From Patescibacteria group bacterium (GTDB taxonomy: Bacteria > Patescibacteriota > Saccharimonadia > Saccharimonadales > CAYUUR01), in assembly GCA_052034685.1 (NCBI GenBank), contig JBPOIH010000008.1, positions 3,502 through 67,501 on the forward strand: DNA of 64,000 nucleotides, given 5' to 3'. Positions 13 to 58,879 of this stretch are shown here, piece by piece (within the stretch, counting starts at the first letter, position 1; every line of letters begins with the position of its first letter). The translations under genes and the position numbers were made by a program. The notes below the pieces were generated by a model. The model was not told the DNA's origin and did not search any database. It worked only from the letters and a program-made list of their open reading frames with translations.

Positions 13-2817
13 ATGGGTATAAAGCTGAGTTTTTCGCACCTCAAGGACACCAGACGAGAAGTCTTGGCTGGCTTGCTGTTGATAGGACTGTTTAGCTTTG
101 GATTTGTGCTGACTCCTAAGCTTGCACAAGCCCATGTTCAGATTGAGAATGATGCATATAACGATTCAGTAGAGCATGCGTGGGGCGAACTAGGTCCAGG
201 GCAGAATCGGCGTAGTTGGGCTGACGTATTGTATTGTCGGACGAGTGTTGAGAGGATAACGTTACCGAATGGACCTGGCGGTAGACCGCGTGCAGTCTAT
301 AAGTTCAAGACGTGGGTTAACGCTAATGCGCGTGGACATGCCTTTGAAGCGGGTGCGTTTGCTGATTCTACCCAAGGACATTGTCAGGATGATAATAACA
401 GTGCTTGGAATGGCAGTAGAGTGAACCTTAATGACGACTTGTTCAAAGTCGGTGGTAGGAAACCAGTTAATGTTACGGTTGGTGCGACGGCGTCTGACGA
501 AGCCCAGCCTGGTGTTCGTGACGGGGTAGCCGCCTATTCATTTGATGCCGGCGTGCGGTTGGCGCACGGTATAGACTTCACGAGCCAAGGCGGAGCGTAT
601 GGTGTTACTGGCGATGCTGCCGGCTATAAAATAAACGGTCGTGTTATCTGGTGTGCCGGTATCGACATCGGCCCAATCAGTAATCCGTATGCACCAGGTG
701 TTGGCACGAATGTGCGTTGGCCCGGTTGGTACTGGGGCGATTGTAGTGGCGGTAGTTTCTTGTTCAGAGCAGGGACGACTGCAACAGGAAACTTTGACAC
801 GCACTGGGGATCATACACGATCGGTGCAATGAAAGACGGCCAGACGGATAGTGGCGTGCGATGTGGTTGTAATTTAGGTGACACGATCCCCGGCATTAGC
901 CGAGCGGCTGACGGAACGGTAAATAACTTTGATCTAGAAACAGCCGGCATATTAATGCATGACGGTGTTGGTACGTATAACGGCAGTAGTGGTGTACCTG
1001 CTGGGTATGGTGGTAGCGCAGATGCTGCGGCTGCGGCTCGAGGCAACCCATATCCAATTCCTGTATCTGAAGCATGGGTAACCATGGAATGGGATCCGGT
1101 AACACGCGGCGGTGTTCAGGTTACTAAGTACCCATCTACCAGTGGACCAGACGCTAACGGCCATGCGACCGGCCCAATTGCCAATCCAGCAACGAGTCCT
1201 GGTAACCGCAATATTTGTATTAACCCGAGCATCGGTTGTGGCAACGGCAACCCGTTCACTGCGTTTAATTCAATCACTGCTTTGCCGGGTGGTTGGTATG
1301 AGATTGACATGAGTGCACCGAGTGGATTTAACATTTCGGCTGTACGCTACATCTATGGCACCAATTTCTCACTGCCGTACGGTACGTTAACTGACCCAGA
1401 TGGTGATGGTAAATACCAGGTATACATAGGCGGCGGTTTTGGGGCGAACGCAACATTGTACTTGGATGTCTACTACGAACCAGAGGCGCCGTCTACATTA
1501 AGTTGTTCAATCGAGTTAGCGCCGGAGTCTCCTGAAGCAAATCAAGGCTTTCACGTATGGTTGCGGTACGGGTACACTGGCACTCGAGCAGTGCAAGCGC
1601 GAGGGAATGTTGTACTCAACGGCACAAGCCCAACTCTTAATCGGGCCTATGGTTCCCTGGCGCTGGCTCCAGGAGCGAGTGGACGAATTAGAATGACGTC
1701 AACACCAGTCTCAGGGCCGGTAGGGGATTACACGGTGAATGCCAACATACAGAAAACTGATGGCGGATTGAACTTTAACTGTCCGCGAACGTTCCAGATT
1801 GCCGCCAAACCGTACTTTAAGGTATGGGCGAATGACGTGCAGGTTGGTGGCACATATAAAGATAGTAGTGGTCAGTGCGATGCAAGCGAAGGCAATCCTC
1901 TGGCGACGGTGATTGCTTACGGCGGTAGTCAAGGTGATGATCCTCCCGGCAGCAATGATTTCCGTGGGGCGTCGGCCGAGTACGCTGTATTTGCGCTCGG
2001 TGAGGTCCGTAACTATATCTCTGCCGGCAGGCGAAGTCCTCGTACTGGCATCGCCTCCCAGTGGCCAACACCACCGCACGGACTGACTTTTGCAAACGCA
2101 AGGATAGATCCATCAATACCTGCTGGTGATCCAGGTGACCCAAACAAGGTTATAAACTACGGTGGTGGTGGGGCTATACGGCACTGTGCTGAGAATTGGG
2201 TTGATGCCAGCAAAATTCCTGGGGACGCAACGGTACTGCCGTCGAACTACAGCTTTATTAACTTTGACTTGAATAACTTTAATGATGCCGTCGAATTGCA
2301 GAGGAATTCAGGAATTGTCAAAGTTAAAGGCAGTACTAATCGGTCTCGCTCCGTGTTTGTTTTAAATGAGAATGTCGATGTCGTAATTGATGGCAATATT
2401 GCTGCGAGTGACGGGAAGACTGTCTATATCATTGCAGCAGGAAACATAAAGATAGCAAAAGGGGTCAACAATATCAACGCGGTTTTGATCAGTAAAAAAC
2501 GAATCATAACCTGTACTGAGGACGACGGGTCGCTGATACCCAAAAACCAGCTATATGATCAATGTGGTGGGAATGACTCTGATCGCAAACTTGTCATACG
2601 TGGCGCGGTGATTGCACAAGAACTCAAGCTCTTACGCACCTACGGCACCCGCCTGCTGAGCCAAGAAAACGAAGCATACAACGCGGGAGCAGCGAATGCC
2701 GCCGCGGAGGAGATCATATTTGACCCAACGCTCTATACGACCAACCCAGCAATCAAAACACCAGAAAAGGCCAAAACACAGATTGACTTCATTACTTCAC
2801 TGCCGCCGATACTTTAG
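13..2817 (+). CDS. Large exported/surface protein (934 aa), function unknown, directly upstream of the type IV pilus operon
   Basis: Uninterrupted 934-codon ORF. N-terminal hydrophobic signal-anchor (LAGLLLIGLFSFGFVLTPKLAQA). Gly/Asn/Thr-rich composition. Internal antisense ORFs are short. Confidence 0.6.
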   Translation: MGIKLSFSHLKDTRREVLAGLLLIGLFSFGFVLTPKLAQAHVQIENDAYNDSVEHAWGELGPGQNRRSWADVLYCRTSVERITLPNGPGGRPRAVYKFKTWVNANARGHAFEAGAFADSTQGHCQDDNNSAWNGSRVNLNDDLFKVGGRKPVNVTVGATASDEAQPGVRDGVAAYSFDAGVRLAHGIDFTSQGGAYGVTGDAAGYKINGRVIWCAGIDIGPISNPYAPGVGTNVRWPGWYWGDCSGGSFLFRAGTTATGNFDTHWGSYTIGAMKDGQTDSGVRCGCNLGDTIPGISRAADGTVNNFDLETAGILMHDGVGTYNGSSGVPAGYGGSADAAAAARGNPYPIPVSEAWVTMEWDPVTRGGVQVTKYPSTSGPDANGHATGPIANPATSPGNRNICINPSIGCGNGNPFTAFNSITALPGGWYEIDMSAPSGFNISAVRYIYGTNFSLPYGTLTDPDGDGKYQVYIGGGFGANATLYLDVYYEPEAPSTLSCSIELAPESPEANQGFHVWLRYGYTGTRAVQARGNVVLNGTSPTLNRAYGSLALAPGASGRIRMTSTPVSGPVGDYTVNANIQKTDGGLNFNCPRTFQIAAKPYFKVWANDVQVGGTYKDSSGQCDASEGNPLATVIAYGGSQGDDPPGSNDFRGASAEYAVFALGEVRNYISAGRRSPRTGIASQWPTPPHGLTFANARIDPSIPAGDPGDPNKVINYGGGGAIRHCAENWVDASKIPGDATVLPSNYSFINFDLNNFNDAVELQRNSGIVKVKGSTNRSRSVFVLNENVDVVIDGNIAASDGKTVYIIAAGNIKIAKGVNNINAVLISKKRIITCTEDDGSLIPKNQLYDQCGGNDSDRKLVIRGAVIAQELKLLRTYGTRLLSQENEAYNAGAANAAAEEIIFDPTLYTTNPAIKTPEKAKTQIDFITSLPPIL

Positions 2818-2948: not shown

Positions 2949-3989
2949 ATGAGCATTATTAGTGGTGTTTCAGATTTCTTTGGTCTCGATATTGGCACAT
3001 CGGCGATTCGTATGGTGCAATTGACAGGCAGCGGAGCAGTAAAGTCGCTGGTTAAGTATGCGTATGTGCCTGTTGATCCAAAGATTTCCATGAGCGATTC
3101 CAAGGCCGACCAGCAAAAGCTGGTACAAGTTGTGAAAGAACTGATTAGCGAAGCAAAAGTGTCGACCAAAAACGTTGCGGTGGGCTTGCCTTCTGCAAAG
3201 GTATTTACCACAGTCGTAGATATTGACCGTTTGTCGACGGATGAACTCGCCAAGACAATTCGCTTCCAAGCAGATTCACTCATACCGACACCACTGGCAG
3301 ATTCCAAGATAGATTGGGCATTATTAGGCGATTCGCCAAAGGACAAGACAAAAGTTGAAATATTGCTTTCGAGCGTAACCAACGAATTTGTAGAAAACCG
3401 TCTTGATATGCTTGAGTCAATTGGGCTTAATGTCATAGCATTTGAACCAGATAATCTTGCGCTGACGCGTGCACTAACACAGCCGGACGCGCCAGGGGCG
3501 CAGATGGTGCTTGATATCGGCTCCAAGAACACCGATCTTGTTATTACGATGAATGGATCACCGCGCCTGACGCGTTCAATCCCAACAGGTTCAGAAGCAA
3601 TCATTAGAGCTGCCATGCAGAACCTCAGCATTGACGAAAAGCAAGCCCAGCAATTTGTGTTCAAGTTTGGCCTCGGCAAAGATAAGCTCGAAGGACAGAT
3701 CTACAATGCCATTATCGGTACAGTAGAGATATTGACCGGCGAGATAGAGAAGTCAATCAAATTCTTCCAGACACGTTATACGGACGCCAAACTAGACAAA
3801 ATTGTCGTAACGGGCGGTGCTTCATCATTACCAGAATTCCCGCTCCACATAGCGAATAAGTTTGCTATGAGCGTAGAAATTGGTAATGCCTGGCGCAATG
3901 TATCGTTTGATCAATCGCAACAAAATGACCTACTCGCTGTGTCCAACAGCTTCGGCGTGGCGGTAGGGTTAGCGGAGAGAAACGAATGA
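2949..3989 (+). CDS. pilM: Type IV pilus assembly protein PilM (actin-like ATPase fold)
   Basis: N-terminus FFGLDIGTSAIRMVQL is typical of PilM/FtsA-like proteins. The stop overlaps the next start (ATGA). It lies upstream of pilN/O-like genes. Confidence 0.85.
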   Translation: MSIISGVSDFFGLDIGTSAIRMVQLTGSGAVKSLVKYAYVPVDPKISMSDSKADQQKLVQVVKELISEAKVSTKNVAVGLPSAKVFTTVVDIDRLSTDELAKTIRFQADSLIPTPLADSKIDWALLGDSPKDKTKVEILLSSVTNEFVENRLDMLESIGLNVIAFEPDNLALTRALTQPDAPGAQMVLDIGSKNTDLVITMNGSPRLTRSIPTGSEAIIRAAMQNLSIDEKQAQQFVFKFGLGKDKLEGQIYNAIIGTVEILTGEIEKSIKFFQTRYTDAKLDKIVVTGGASSLPEFPLHIANKFAMSVEIGNAWRNVSFDQSQQNDLLAVSNSFGVAVGLAERNE

Positions 3990-37433: not shown

Positions 37434-37509
37434 GCCGAAGTAGCTCAGTTGGTAGAGCAGCTCATTCGTAACGAGCAGGTCGCAGGTTCAAGTCCCGTCT
37501 TCGGCTCCA
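37434..37509 (+). tRNA. tRNA-Thr (anticodon CGT)
   Basis: Acceptor GCCGAAG/CTTCGGC, anticodon loop TTCGTAA, T-arm GCAGG-TTCAAGT-CCCGT, discriminator T, encoded CCA. TGCTATAAT box at 37408-37416. Confidence 0.85.
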
Positions 37510-46702: not shown

Positions 46703-46779
46703 TGGTGGGCGATAGAGGATTCGAACCTCTCACCTCGTCAACGTCAATGACGCGCTCTAGCCAAATGAGCTAATCGCCC
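46703..46779 (-). tRNA. tRNA-Val (anticodon GAC)
   Basis: Reverse complement GGGCGAT-TA-GCTC...GAGC-G-CGTCA-TTGACGT-TGACG-AGGTG-AGAGG-TTCGAAT-CCTCT-ATCGCCC-A-CCA. Confidence 0.9.
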
Positions 46780-46875: not shown

Positions 46876-47163
46876 AGCTATATATGGCGCAGAGTTGAAT
46901 TCTGACGCCCTCAGACAGCGATTAGCATACCAGAACAGGGGAGAAAAAGGAAGTATACCTTTTATGAGATAATTTCTATCCCCAGGCAAAATGTAGAAAT
47001 GACAATACTAAAGTACTAGCCATATCATGCTAGTACTGTATACTCATTGATGTGTGAGAGTTTTGATCGGTGTTTTATGCAGGCGCTTTCGAAGATAATT
47101 GCGAGAATCTTTGAACGGCGCTTGTTTCTTTTCCAGGGTATATTGCAGCTCAAAACAGGGGTG

Positions 47164-47340
47164 TGATATACTTTATATCAAGCATTGATGTGGCCTCACC
47201 AACCACTGAGCTTCGCTTAAACGGTTGCGGTGTGCGATAACACGAGCATCATAAGTAAAAGTCCGGTGGAACCGTCTAGAAGCTATTCTGGACCCGAGAC
47301 GCGCTTGGTAGTACATGTCGTACAATCAGCGCGCTTTTTA
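47164..47340 (+). promoter_or_regulatory. T-box-like riboswitch leader of thrS (promoter, antiterminator/terminator)
   Basis: Extended -10 TG-a-TATACT (47164-47172). Helix A1 GUCCGG/CCGAGAC. 7-nt bulge UGGAACC (47267-47273). Helix A2 GUCUAG/CUGGAC. Terminator 47297-47339 with a U-run. Confidence 0.6.
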
Positions 47341-47375
47341 TTTCTAAACAAATGTAAAACCACAAGGAGAGCAGC

Positions 47376-49256
47376 ATGGCTGACAAACAGTCAAAAGAGG
47401 ATCAATTACACGCAATGCGACATAGTTTGGCGCATATTATGGCAACCGCTGTGACCACCTTGTGGCCAGAGGCCAAACTGGGCGTGGGGCCAGTCGTAGA
47501 AAACGGCTTTTATTACGATATTGACCTTGGTCAGACCAAGATTTCTGAAGAGGATTTCTCTAAGATCGAGAAAGAAATGCAAAAGGTCATCAAGGCTGAT
47601 CAGAAATTCGAAAAATCGATGATGAAAATCGACGAAGCAATTAAGTGGGCCAAGAGTGCCAAGCAGCCATATAAAGAAGAGCTACTGAACGACCTTAAAC
47701 GTGCCGGTACTACTGTTGCTAAAGACTTAGATGCAGATGAGCTGGGCACAATCACTGAGGGCGATAGCAAAATGGACGAGGTTTCGTTCTATCAGAATGG
47801 TGACTTCAAAGACCTCTGTCGTGGTCCACACGTTGAATCTACCGGCAAGGTCGGCGCCTTCAAACTAATGCGCATCGCTGGTGCCTACTGGCGTGGCAAA
47901 GAAGGTAATCCGCAAATGCAGCGCCTATACGGCGTAGCCTTTGCGACAGAAAAAGAACTCCGCCAACATCTGAATATGCTCGAAGAAGCCAAGAAGCGCG
48001 ACCACCGCAAACTCGGTCAAGAACTTGACTTGTTTATCTTCTCTGATTTAGTCGGCAGTGGGCTACCTCTCTATACTCCGCGAGGTACGTACATACGTAA
48101 CGGTCTGATCAACTTCTCTGAAGAGGTCCGCGAACAGCTCGGTTTTGAGCGTGTCTGGTCTCCGCACATTACAAAGAAAGATCTGTATGAGAAGTCAGGG
48201 CATTGGGATAAGTTTGGCGATGAGCTGTTTTTGGTAAAAAGCCAAGAAACAACCGATGAGCTGGTAATGAAGCCGATGAACTGTCCGCATCATGCTCAGA
48301 TTTATGCTGCGAAACCACGTAGCTACCGTGATTTACCGGTGAAGTTAATGGAGACAACTACAAACTACCGAGATGAAAAAACCGGTGAACTGCATGGCCT
48401 TTCACGGGTTCGCTCTTTAACGCAAGACGATAGTCATACGTATTGCCGCCCAGATCAGGTGGACGAGATTTTTGACCAGCTGATAGAGAAGATTCAAGAG
48501 TTCTATGCAGCGATTGATATGGAGCTTCATTTGCGCTTGTCTCTGAGAGATGACAGCGAATCATACCTTGGCCCGCAAAAACTTTGGGATTTTGGCCAGA
48601 AGAAACTTGCTGAGATTGCCGGTCGCAACAAACTCGAATACTACGCAGAAGAAGGTGAGGCCGCATTCTATGGTCCAAAGCTCGATTTCATGGCCAAAGA
48701 CGCCATTGGTCGCGTTTGGCAGGTGGCAACGGTGCAGTTTGACTTTGTCCAGCCTGAGCGCTTTGAACTCGCCTACATTGACGAAAAGGGCGAAAAACAG
48801 CGGCCAATCATGATTCATTGCGCAATTATGGGCAGTTTTGACCGCTTCTTCTCGGTGTACATTGAGCATACGGCTGGCAAGTTCCCAGTTTGGTTGGCCC
48901 CAGAACAGGTCAGACTCATTACAGTGAACCAAGAAGAGCCAACCGTAAAATGTGCTGAAGAATTCTTTGATAAGGCCAAAGCTAAAGGACTTCGAGTAAC
49001 TATCGACAATTCCAACGAATCTGTTGGCAAGAAGATTCGTGCATCAGAGATGATGAAAGTGCCATACACATTGGTGATTGGGGAGAAAGAAGTTGCTTCT
49101 GGCGAAGTAGTGCCACGTGTCCGCAAAGACATCGAAGTCCAAACTCAGCAAACACCGGTAACTATCGATGAATTTCTCGGTACAGTAGCCAATGAAACCA
49201 AAGCTCGCACCAGTCATACCTCGCTACAAGGGGTCAAAACCAAGCATGAAGCCTGA
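47376..49256 (+). CDS. thrS: Threonyl-tRNA synthetase (lacks N-terminal TGS domain)
   Basis: MRHSLAHIMA editing-domain motif, class II core (FYQNGDFKDLCRGPH, HRKLG, RDEKTGELHGLSRVR) and an anticodon-binding domain. SD AAGGAGA. Confidence 0.9.
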   Translation: MADKQSKEDQLHAMRHSLAHIMATAVTTLWPEAKLGVGPVVENGFYYDIDLGQTKISEEDFSKIEKEMQKVIKADQKFEKSMMKIDEAIKWAKSAKQPYKEELLNDLKRAGTTVAKDLDADELGTITEGDSKMDEVSFYQNGDFKDLCRGPHVESTGKVGAFKLMRIAGAYWRGKEGNPQMQRLYGVAFATEKELRQHLNMLEEAKKRDHRKLGQELDLFIFSDLVGSGLPLYTPRGTYIRNGLINFSEEVREQLGFERVWSPHITKKDLYEKSGHWDKFGDELFLVKSQETTDELVMKPMNCPHHAQIYAAKPRSYRDLPVKLMETTTNYRDEKTGELHGLSRVRSLTQDDSHTYCRPDQVDEIFDQLIEKIQEFYAAIDMELHLRLSLRDDSESYLGPQKLWDFGQKKLAEIAGRNKLEYYAEEGEAAFYGPKLDFMAKDAIGRVWQVATVQFDFVQPERFELAYIDEKGEKQRPIMIHCAIMGSFDRFFSVYIEHTAGKFPVWLAPEQVRLITVNQEEPTVKCAEEFFDKAKAKGLRVTIDNSNESVGKKIRASEMMKVPYTLVIGEKEVASGEVVPRVRKDIEVQTQQTPVTIDEFLGTVANETKARTSHTSLQGVKTKHEA

Positions 49257-54882: not shown

Positions 54883-55233
54883 GCTAGATTATTGGCTAGT
54901 CGCCGCGTATTTTATACGGGGAGGAAAGTCCGGGCAGCATAGGGAATGACAGTTGCTAACGGCAACCGAGGGAAACCTTAGGGAAAGTGCCACAGAAACG
55001 ATACCGCCCAGCCTCGGTTGGGAACGGGTGAAACGAGTGAGGTAAAAGCTCACAGCTGCCTACGGTGACGTAGGGAGGAGGTAAACCCTGTCTGCTGCAA
55101 GGAGATAGACCTACTAGGGTTCCCGCCACGGTTTATCGCTTATCCGCTCGACCTTGTTGGTGACAACAAGGCTAGATAGATGATTAGCCCTCAGTTTACT
55201 GGGGACAGAACCCGGCTTATAGATAATCTAGCT
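54883..55233 (+). ncRNA. rnpB: RNase P RNA (bacterial type A)
   Basis: P1 pairing AGCTAGATTAT/ATAATCTAGCT. Conserved GAGGAAAGTCCGGGC (P4 5' strand) and ACAGAACCCGGCTTA (P4 3' strand). Confidence 0.9.
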
Positions 55234-55259
55234 TTATAACAAGCGCTGTACCGCGCGAG

Positions 55260-58561: not shown

Positions 58562-58879
58562 GGAGGTTTTTGTGTGTGGTGTGAACTTTGGTTTTAAAGT
58601 TTTGGCTTTTCTTTTTTATGGAACAACGGCTTGCGAGAAGCCGTTGTTTTTGAGTCTTTTTGTTTTTGAGCACTTTTTTTATTCAAGTGCTGTCCCTATC
58701 TTATAAACAAGCCATTTCTATGTCAACACGTTTATGTTTGTTTTCTTCACAAACCTGTGTATAACTTTTCTTATCTGCAGTACGTCTTGTGGCAAAAAAC
58801 GGCCAATCAGCATCAAAATTCGGCTCACAGACGGTAAAATCCAAAGCTCTTGTATATATAAATACAAAAGCTAGCATAT

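Follow-up and report, generated by a model that had tools for sequence, protein, structure and literature searches.

A predicted miniature T-box riboswitch without an elbow-binding platform upstream of thrS in Saccharibacteria

We analysed a window of 64 kb (the whole stretch of DNA considered here) from the genome of a member of the Saccharibacteria (TM7), a lineage of the candidate phyla radiation (CPR), in which thrS, encoding threonyl-tRNA synthetase (ThrRS), is the sole aminoacyl-tRNA synthetase gene. An initial annotation, made from the sequence alone, had read the region immediately upstream of thrS as a T-box-like, tRNA-Thr-sensing leader built of an antiterminator and a competing terminator, and this overall reading is supported by the comparative analysis described below. 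We consider it highly probable, judging from sequence and its conservation, that positions 47180-47339 are a miniature T-box riboswitch making thrS transcription depend on uncharged tRNA-Thr. T-box riboswitches are the model system in which recognition of a tRNA, its identity and its charge, by another RNA is studied. The predicted elements of the locus are as follows:

47143-47172, plus strand: promoter, with a -35-like TTGCAG (47143-47148), an 18-nt spacer and an extended -10, TGaTATACT
47180-47213, plus strand: ultrashort Stem I, a kink-turn (K-turn) plus a 5-bp helix, covarying
47180-47183 (AAGC) with 47210-47213 (GCUU), plus strand: C-stem of the K-turn, pairing across leaders
47184-47186, plus strand: 3-nt bulge of the K-turn, AUU
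47187-47188 (GA) and 47208-47209 (GA), plus strand: tandem G.A/A.G of the K-turn, invariant dinucleotides
47189-47193 (UGUGG) with 47203-47207 (CCACU), plus strand: NC helix, covarying
47194-47202, plus strand: terminal specifier loop, CCUCACCAA
47198-47200, plus strand: specifier codon ACC, followed by the conserved purine A47201, as placed by the alignment
47214-47250, plus strand: middle domain, an H-type (hairpin-type) pseudoknot, from covariation
47214-47216 (CGC) with 47234-47236 (GCG), plus strand: helix Pa, reaching into the apical loop GCGAUA (47234-47239), pairing conserved
G47224 and 47225-47228 (UUGC) with 47246-47250 (GCAUC), plus strand: helix Pb, covarying, with one U.U mismatch
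47230-47233 (GUGU) with 47240-47243 (ACAC), plus strand: helix Pc, covarying
47251-47260, plus strand: purine-rich linker, AUAAGUAAAA, with a conserved AAG (47253-47255) and no Stem III hairpin
47261-47300, plus strand: antiterminator (discriminator), delimited in related loci
47261-47266 (GUCCGG) with 47294-47300 (CCGAGAC), plus strand: helix A1, A47297 bulged, covarying
47267-47273, plus strand: 7-nt T-box bulge, UGGAACC, with invariant UGGA
47274-47293, plus strand: A2 hairpin, 8 bp with a 4-nt loop
47296-47339, plus strand: intrinsic terminator, an interrupted GC-rich hairpin (47296-47334) and then UUUUU (47335-47339)
47364-47369, plus strand: Shine-Dalgarno sequence AAGGAG
47376-49256, plus strand: thrS, an open reading frame (ORF) of 626 amino acids

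The leader was compared with those of the 80 best ThrRS relatives in a species-level genome collection, among which L003 is 96% identical in ThrRS; nearly all are labelled Candidatus Saccharibacteria or Saccharimonadales, the exceptions being one Parcubacteria label, one Nomurabacteria label and several plain 'bacterium'. About 52 of these 80 loci have the motif TGGAACC in the 450 nt before thrS, always with A at the variable position. A covariance model, R1, was built from a structure-blind MAFFT alignment of 28 related leaders and run over both strands of the window and the 80 loci, 635 kb in total. It gave 58 matches at E<1e-4, every one immediately before thrS on the strand of that gene, with none elsewhere in the 635 kb, and exactly one in the window (47180-47300, 90.9 bits, E=1e-18). 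The element is thus present in 57 of the 80 related loci.

Conservation acts on the structure. For the 28-leader alignment the proportion of paired cells is 86.9%, and sliding the 3' partners by 1-3 columns lowers it to 30-39%; 24 of the 28 pairs have changed on both sides, and none of 500 shuffles reached the observed value on any measure. The 59 model-aligned sequences give comparable values (87.3% of cells paired, slid controls 26-38%, 30 of 31 pairs compensatory), although that alignment is fitted to the model and the unfitted 28-leader result is the cleaner test. Applied unguided to the MAFFT alignment, RNAalifold recovers both Stem I helices and A2; it leaves out A1 and Pb, which have mismatches or slips in the alignment, and in their stead joins invariant bases within the bulge. 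The window leader itself folds better than its shuffles (z = -3.0). Its full-length minimum free energy (MFE) fold pairs the 3' strand of Stem I with the 5' strand of A1 and the UGG of the bulge, an alternative that we kept out of the structural model on the assumption that it is specific to the window sequence. The alignment of related thrS leaders that the initial annotation had named as a check favours it: the bulge and the pattern of helices are kept, and the specifier too, across the 58 R1 matches.

These results bear directly on two ways of dismissing the element, as a leader-peptide attenuator in which ribosomes stall at threonine codons or as a chance resemblance with no regulatory role, which together we regard as barely credible. 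An attenuator would account for a terminator placed before an amino-acid-related gene, and a 74-amino-acid ORF with a GTG start (47230-47454) does overlap the leader; yet there is no run of threonine codons, that ORF enters thrS out of frame, and what is conserved, through compensatory changes, is RNA helices and not a peptide. Against chance resemblance stand the 58 specific matches and the shuffle and slide controls.

Stem I is built on the same plan in every leader: a 4-bp helix, a 3-nt bulge, GA, a helix of 4-6 bp and a loop of 7-10 nt, with the return strand of the NC helix, GA and the return strand of the first helix on the other side. Among the 59 model-aligned sequences the C-stem is 97% paired with 4/4 pairs compensatory (variants GAGC/GCUC, AAGC/GCUU, GAAC/GUUC, GAGU/ACUC and AGAU/GUCU), and the NC helix 85% paired with 5/5 compensatory. 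The pattern is the signature of a K-turn, the 'GA motif', and it is from this pattern that we infer the kink itself. Above the NC helix the module ends: no distal platform of AG bulge and distal loop was found in Stem I, the terminal loop of 7-10 nt sitting directly atop the 5-bp helix. In most genomes the loop reads N(1-4)-ACC-A-N. The third codon position is mostly C, with G in L002, L023, L028 and L033 (ACG) and U in L004, L052 and L078 (ACU), so that only ACC, ACG or ACU, all threonine codons, occur across the 58 leaders; the alignment columns that hold the A and C of the codon, and the A after it, do not vary.

Because the codon varies only synonymously among threonine codons ahead of a ThrRS gene, the specifier which the initial annotation had put first, an ACC-A in a hairpin loop, is the right one, and its guess of a reduced Stem I is confirmed in the K-turn and short hairpin, whose terminal loop holds the codon. 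The hairpin it drew, GUGG-ccucACCAa-CCAC, exists but lies at 47190-47206, two bases to the left of the 47192-47208 it was given. Its alternative specifier, ACA/ACG at 47240-47245, is ruled out, since these bases fall in the 3' strand of helix Pc.

The loop also decides against another arrangement known for this gene. In E. coli, thrS is autoregulated by ThrRS binding to an mRNA hairpin, and an operator of that type, in which a hairpin mimics the anticodon arm of tRNA-Thr and the bound enzyme represses its own synthesis, would fit an element upstream of thrS with a conserved hairpin and a 7-9-nt loop. The loop, however, holds a codon (ACC/ACG/ACU) and not an anticodon (NGU), a terminator and a distance of about 170 nt separate the hairpin from the Shine-Dalgarno sequence, and an operator would leave no role for the K-turn or for an invariant UGGA bulge between covarying A1 and A2. 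We rate such an operator as very improbable.

Between Stem I and the antiterminator the T-box leader predicted here has a small middle domain, a hairpin of Pb and Pc whose apical loop, (A/G)CG(A/U)NA, forms pairs with the 3-4 nt that come directly after Stem I. This last pairing, Pa, is 94% paired, one of its pairs switching from U-A (41 sequences) to C-G (9), and subgroups show longer versions (ACGUG/CACGU, UCGGG/CCCGA, CCGC/GCGG). Pb is 87% paired with 5/5 pairs compensatory. Pc is not universal; it is 64% paired, a figure partly lowered by alignment slips, with 3/3 pairs compensatory and variants GGU/ACC, CGU/ACG, UGU/ACA and AGU/ACU. A purine-rich internal loop separates Pb and Pc, in which a clear S-turn was not recognised, and the apical loop bears only a loose resemblance to the F-box CCGUCA. 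By analogy with the Stem IIA/B pseudoknot, we infer that the domain would support the codon-anticodon helix and position the discriminator.

The linker that follows has an AAG that is invariant or nearly so in the alignment. Directly 5' of A1, the AAGAGUAAA linker (conserved purines AAG(AG)UAAA) is also found in canonical T-boxes from metagenomes: a metagenome scan for the linker plus a bulge with a non-A variable base returned many of them, and the linker is therefore a common T-box feature. The 'RAG' purines conserved in the discriminator (PMC11297988) are probably its counterpart. One subgroup of Saccharibacteria has a Stem III-like hairpin inserted between AAG and A1, where the subgroup of the window has a single U.

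The discriminator itself agrees with the AGGGUGGNACCGCG consensus at 10 of 14 positions (PMC11297988). In the 59-sequence alignment A1 is 84% paired with 7/7 pairs compensatory (variants GUCCGG/CCGAGAC, UUUCGG/CCGAAA, GUUUCGA/UCGAAGC and GUUUUGG/CCAAGAC) and A2 is 96% paired with 4/4 compensatory (GUC..GAC, UCC..GGA, GCC..GGC), while in the 58 leaders UGGA is invariant and the full bulge is UGGAACC in all except four, which have UGGAACA. The antiterminator had been drawn correctly from the window alone as regards helix A1, GUCCGG with CCG(A)GAC at these exact coordinates, and the UGGAACC bulge at 47267-47273; the A2 hairpin had been located correctly too, and only its minor detail changes, from 6 bp with an 8-nt loop to 8 bp with a 4-nt loop. 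Searched generically for other A1/UGGNACC/A2 discriminators, the window returned, apart from that at 47267, weak and chance-like matches only.

A tRNA-Thr gene in the window shows the UCCA 3' end of the lineage, though its tRNA is not the one that reads ACC:

37434-37509, plus strand: tRNA-Thr(CGU), identified by ARAGORN and Rfam, ending ...GGC-U-CCA, that is, with discriminator U73 and an encoded CCA

UGGA is complementary to the U73-CCA of this tRNA, as the initial annotation had proposed, and the match so far is limited to the CGU isoacceptor, whereas the ACC codon of the window calls for tRNA-Thr(GGU). All three tRNA-Thr(CGU) genes available (window, L028 and L061) have U73 and an encoded CCA, and in L028 an ACG specifier and tRNA-Thr(CGU) with U73 occur in the same locus, a complete cognate match. 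By contrast, the canonical metagenomic thrS T-box L140 has a UGGU bulge, and a compact metagenomic leader, L113, found before a W/Y-class synthetase gene, has a UGG codon and a UGGC bulge. UGGC fits the G73 of bacterial tRNA-Trp.

At its 5' end the leader is tied to a promoter. The extended -10 called by the initial annotation, TGATATACT at 47164-47172, is indeed there, and its position is conserved: a TAnnnT hexamer lies within 4-12 nt upstream of the Stem I base in 57/57 examinable leaders, ending 6-7 nt upstream of it in 49/57, and the TGn extension is present in 42/57, as against 11/57 for a control window 60 nt further upstream. The fixed distance of 6-7 nt places the start of the transcript at Stem I, where other T-box leaders start too. 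A simple promoter and terminator scan missed this promoter, the -35 being too weak; it flagged instead an upstream promoter-like pair and the palindrome 47012-47037, part of a different conserved element.

At the 3' end the competing terminator of the initial annotation is likewise present, as a hairpin with UUUUU that overlaps the A1 3' strand, though only through its bottom 4 bp (C47300-G47333, G47298-C47334, A47297-U47335 and G47296-U47336). Its stem has 13 bp, or 16 bp when pairs into the U-tract are counted, and a computed energy of -18.3 kcal/mol (RNAfold); the simple scan missed it because the stem is interrupted. By rule, a hairpin with a U-tract was found right behind A1 in 42 of 52 related leaders, and by eye in several more; among those which the rule missed, several have U-rich tails (L035, L049) or A2 insertions that misled delimitation. 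In the relatives the terminator stem starts 2-7 nt into the 7-nt 3' strand of A1. The U-tract is 36 nt from the thrS start codon, without promoter-like sequence between, and thrS is an essential gene, so some control of readthrough is required. The Shine-Dalgarno AAGGAG, 25 nt downstream of the terminator, is not part of it and stays unpaired in the MFE fold.

On this anatomy, conserved in its covarying helices, its threonine codon and its UGGA/U73 match and bounded by promoter and terminator, the established T-box mechanism would have tRNA binding, charge sensing and readthrough proceed as follows. Transcription would start some 7 nt downstream of the extended -10, where Stem I begins, and the ACC of the terminal loop with its following purine would pair with the anticodon of tRNA-Thr(GGU). 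If that tRNA is uncharged, its free UCCA 3' end could pair with the UGGA of the bulge and lock A1, which would withhold the bases at the bottom of the terminator stem beside the U-tract, so that RNA polymerase would read through into thrS. A charged tRNA could not lock A1; the terminator would then be completed and transcription would stop at 47335-47339.

Several observations weigh against this account. The terminator excludes only the outer 3 bp of A1, with four shared bases; its core (47301-47332) has no overlap with A1 and coexists with it in the MFE fold; and the two states are nearly equal in computed energy, -29.6 kcal/mol for A1, A2 and a truncated terminator against -28.1 kcal/mol for A2 and the full terminator. 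In 17 of the 42 relatives the overlap of terminator and A1 in the MFE fold is a single base. The switch may therefore be leaky or work unlike the canonical one. The tRNA-Thr(GGU) that the mechanism would call for was not found in the window or in any fetched locus, only CGU isoacceptors. Transcriptional T-boxes generally need the elbow-binding platform of Stem I (PMC7583486), and it is absent from the window leader. About 15-20 of the 80 related species have no T-box, thrS lying behind an extended -10 promoter with a very short 5' untranslated region (L007, L008, L011, L014, L015, L021, L030, L038, L039, L044, L056, L062, L066 and L079), and the riboswitch is thus dispensable in the lineage. 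Finally, the T-box family model RF00230 of Rfam, a scan of which the initial annotation had named, finds no match in the whole window at its gathering threshold or at E<=10 on 46950-47450, and likewise none in 19 relatives at gathering or in L054 and L022 at E<=1.

The points that concern the terminator would equally suit an RNA that binds tRNA-Thr in T-box fashion but has another output, acting on mRNA stability or processing or only weakly modulating the terminator, which we think unlikely. On that reading the terminator would be constitutive for the most part, and the element would serve for tuning or as a stand-alone small RNA. In favour are the overlap of only 1-5 nt between A1 and terminator, the near-isoenergetic states, the terminator core that coexists with A1 in the MFE fold, and an A2 that lies outside the terminator, unlike in the canonical L117 and L160. 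Yet the few overlapped bases are those at the bottom of the stem, adjoining the U-tract, and release at an intrinsic terminator depends on this part most of all; control through the stem bottom is plausible for that reason, even if the dynamic range of the switch may be modest. Moreover thrS is essential, the 36 nt from U-tract to start codon leave no room for another promoter, and the terminator stands right after A1 in most leaders. We therefore continue to favour transcriptional control by tRNA-Thr.

The absence of the element from some relatives implies that it was gained or lost within the lineage, and several of the non-carrying loci among the 80 lack upstream sequence. The element is widespread in Saccharibacteria, not universal.

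As to Rfam, the gathering score of RF00230 is 93 bits, so that negatives in gathering mode say little by themselves, and E-value mode was calibrated on canonical T-boxes. Canonical metagenomic T-boxes scored 50-88 bits in E-value mode, and one reached 103 bits at gathering, whereas the compact metagenomic leaders L113, L160 and L141 gave no RF00230 match at E<=1. Because canonical T-boxes scored in the same run, the negative reflects the model, which looks for a long Stem I, and does not speak against T-box function. The search of the TBDB database for a truncated Stem I ('class II') covered only Actinobacteria and sequences detected by RF00230 (PMC7778990), and being so limited it would have missed the compact class. 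In the full-text literature searched we found no report of T-boxes in Saccharibacteria, the candidate phyla radiation or Patescibacteria.

The genes around thrS are unrelated housekeeping genes, with a DFP-domain protein and a TrmB-family regulator upstream and an MGMT-like protein and MiaA downstream. Two RNA genes were identified in addition to that for tRNA-Thr:

46703-46779, minus strand: tRNA-Val(GAC), upstream of the thrS leader
54884-55235, plus strand: RNase P RNA, bacterial class A (262.7 bits), an ordinary gene

The order of tRNA-Val and thrS is kept in almost all relatives. In L071 ARAGORN calls a 91-nt 'tRNA-Gly(ACC)' (2601-2691, plus strand) just upstream of the thrS leader and beside two tRNA-Val genes, perhaps a false call, perhaps an odd tRNA or one with an intron. 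By Pfam the thrS product has the class II core, the HGTP anticodon-binding domain and the Thr/Ala tRNA_SAD domain, while no TGS domain was found in it; it begins directly at the editing/second additional domain region, and the ThrRS behind the canonical metagenomic T-box L140 starts in the same way. An N-terminal TGS domain is usual in bacterial ThrRS.

A second conserved non-coding element lies between tRNA-Val and the T-box promoter:

46975-47130, plus strand: conserved non-coding element, with no Rfam match

It starts promoter-like, ..CCCCAG..GUACUAGCCnUAUAAUACUAACCUUGCUAUGAUAGU, with a near-palindrome at 47012-47037, and continues through a conserved GGUGAAGUUUUGCCGAGA..GUUUU-like segment and a hairpin with a UUGCGAGA loop (47088-47115) to a U-rich tail. 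Nearly all related loci have it, including those without a T-box, and it may encode a small RNA. Long terminator-like hairpins of Saccharibacteria repeatedly have the motif UGCGAGA(G/U) in their loops, at 47088-47115 and 58620-58650 in the window and in many thrS T-box terminators (L001, L009, L022, L026, L031, L036, L049, L051, L053 and L080). The 7-mer UGCGAGA is not enriched in the window (7 found against about 7.8 expected), and two of the seven copies sit in hairpin loops, with stems of 9 bp and 12 bp.

On the current view, T-boxes without a platform are confined to slower, translational control in Actinobacteria, the transcriptional ones needing the platform for fast capture of tRNA (PMC7583486). 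A conserved T-box without a platform acting on a terminator would challenge this rule and make it directly testable; were the account given here true, the Stem I platform would not be required for co-transcriptional sensing of tRNA. The element would then be the smallest natural sensor of tRNA charge, invisible to annotation based on RF00230, and an RNA-based amino-acid-sensing circuit would persist in the reduced genomes of the CPR. It would offer a natural scaffold of 121 nt for structural and synthetic-biology work, and would expose an annotation blind spot in which RF00230 and the TBDB pipeline miss a whole class. On balance we incline to the broader view that this is an undescribed, widespread class of minimal Saccharibacteria T-boxes, with relatives for other amino acids in uncultured bacteria, exerting terminator control through about 120 nt of sensing RNA. 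The class may be marked by the lack of an elbow platform, of a canonical Stem II S-turn and, in this subgroup, of Stem III, together with a pseudoknot of reversed polarity and a minimal overlap of A1 and terminator. What is new relative to known T-boxes is the combination of an ultrashort Stem I with predicted transcriptional control in a CPR lineage.

With the canonical transcriptional T-boxes (RF00230; Bacillus subtilis tyrS, thrS and glyQS) the window leader shares the K-turn (GA motif) from which Stem I rises, a specifier codon that matches the regulated synthetase and is followed by a conserved purine, the A1 helix, 7-nt UGGN-ACC bulge and A2, with UGGN predicted to match the discriminator base of the tRNA, the AAG(AG)UAAA linker that leads into A1, an intrinsic terminator that is the predicted alternative to the antiterminator, and a position before an aminoacyl-tRNA synthetase gene. 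It differs from them in a Stem I that stops at the specifier in its terminal loop, with no AG bulge/distal loop platform for the tRNA elbow, and in having no recognisable long Stem II with an S-turn, the Stem II/IIA-B region being replaced by a hairpin that pairs, through its loop, with the strand on its 5' side. The subgroup of the window has no Stem III, and its terminator overlaps only the outer 3' strand of A1, where the canonical one (L117, L160) uses the 3' strands of A2 and A1. The canonical Stem IIA/B pseudoknot forms when a hairpin loop pairs with the linker that follows on its 3' side (PMC11297988). In the window leader the loop reaches back to a strand that precedes the hairpin, and the domain has about 37 nt compared with about 70 nt plus 21 nt (PMC7583486). 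The host, too, is a Saccharibacterium of the CPR and not one of the Gram-positive lineages that hold most annotated T-boxes (PMC7583486, PMC11297988).

An 'ultrashort' Stem I was reportedly described in actinobacterial ileS T-boxes by Sherwood, Grundy and Henkin in 2015. These T-boxes (Mycobacterium tuberculosis, Nocardia farcinica; PMC7583486, PMC11297988) share with the window leader a truncated Stem I without an elbow platform, a pseudoknotted domain between Stem I and discriminator, and the same discriminator architecture. They are, however, described as translational, sequestering the Shine-Dalgarno sequence, whereas the window leader has a hairpin and U-tract terminator and leaves the Shine-Dalgarno outside it and unpaired, and they read an isoleucine codon before ileS where the window has a threonine codon before thrS. 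Their roughly 70-nt Stem II with an S-turn, 21-nt IIA/B pseudoknot formed between loop and 3' linker, and Stem III have as counterpart a middle domain of about 37 nt in which the loop pairs with a 5' strand, and no Stem III. Measured to the end of A1, the window leader has 121 nt and the M. tuberculosis construct 166 nt (PMC11297988).

Smaller still are the compact trpS/argS leaders from metagenomes, at about 875-961 (minus strand) of L113, 670-757 (plus strand) of L160 and 3414-3525 (minus strand) of L141, the gene behind L113 encoding a W/Y-class synthetase and that behind L141 ArgRS. A further candidate, L098, whose loop seemingly holds a proline codon, was dropped as a compact example, as it scores 52.5 bits with RF00230 and may have an ordinary Stem I. 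The codon of L141 is ambiguous (CGC or GCG), and we use this leader as architectural support only. L113 and L160, with their UGG codon and UGGC bulge, differ from the window leader in having no middle domain and in forming the terminator from the 3' strands of A2 and A1 as canonical T-boxes do. All three share with it the K-turn, short helix, terminal-loop codon, AAGAGUAAA linker, A1/bulge/A2 discriminator and terminator, and L141 has the Pa/Pb pseudoknot as well; by these sequences the compact design is not restricted to threonine.

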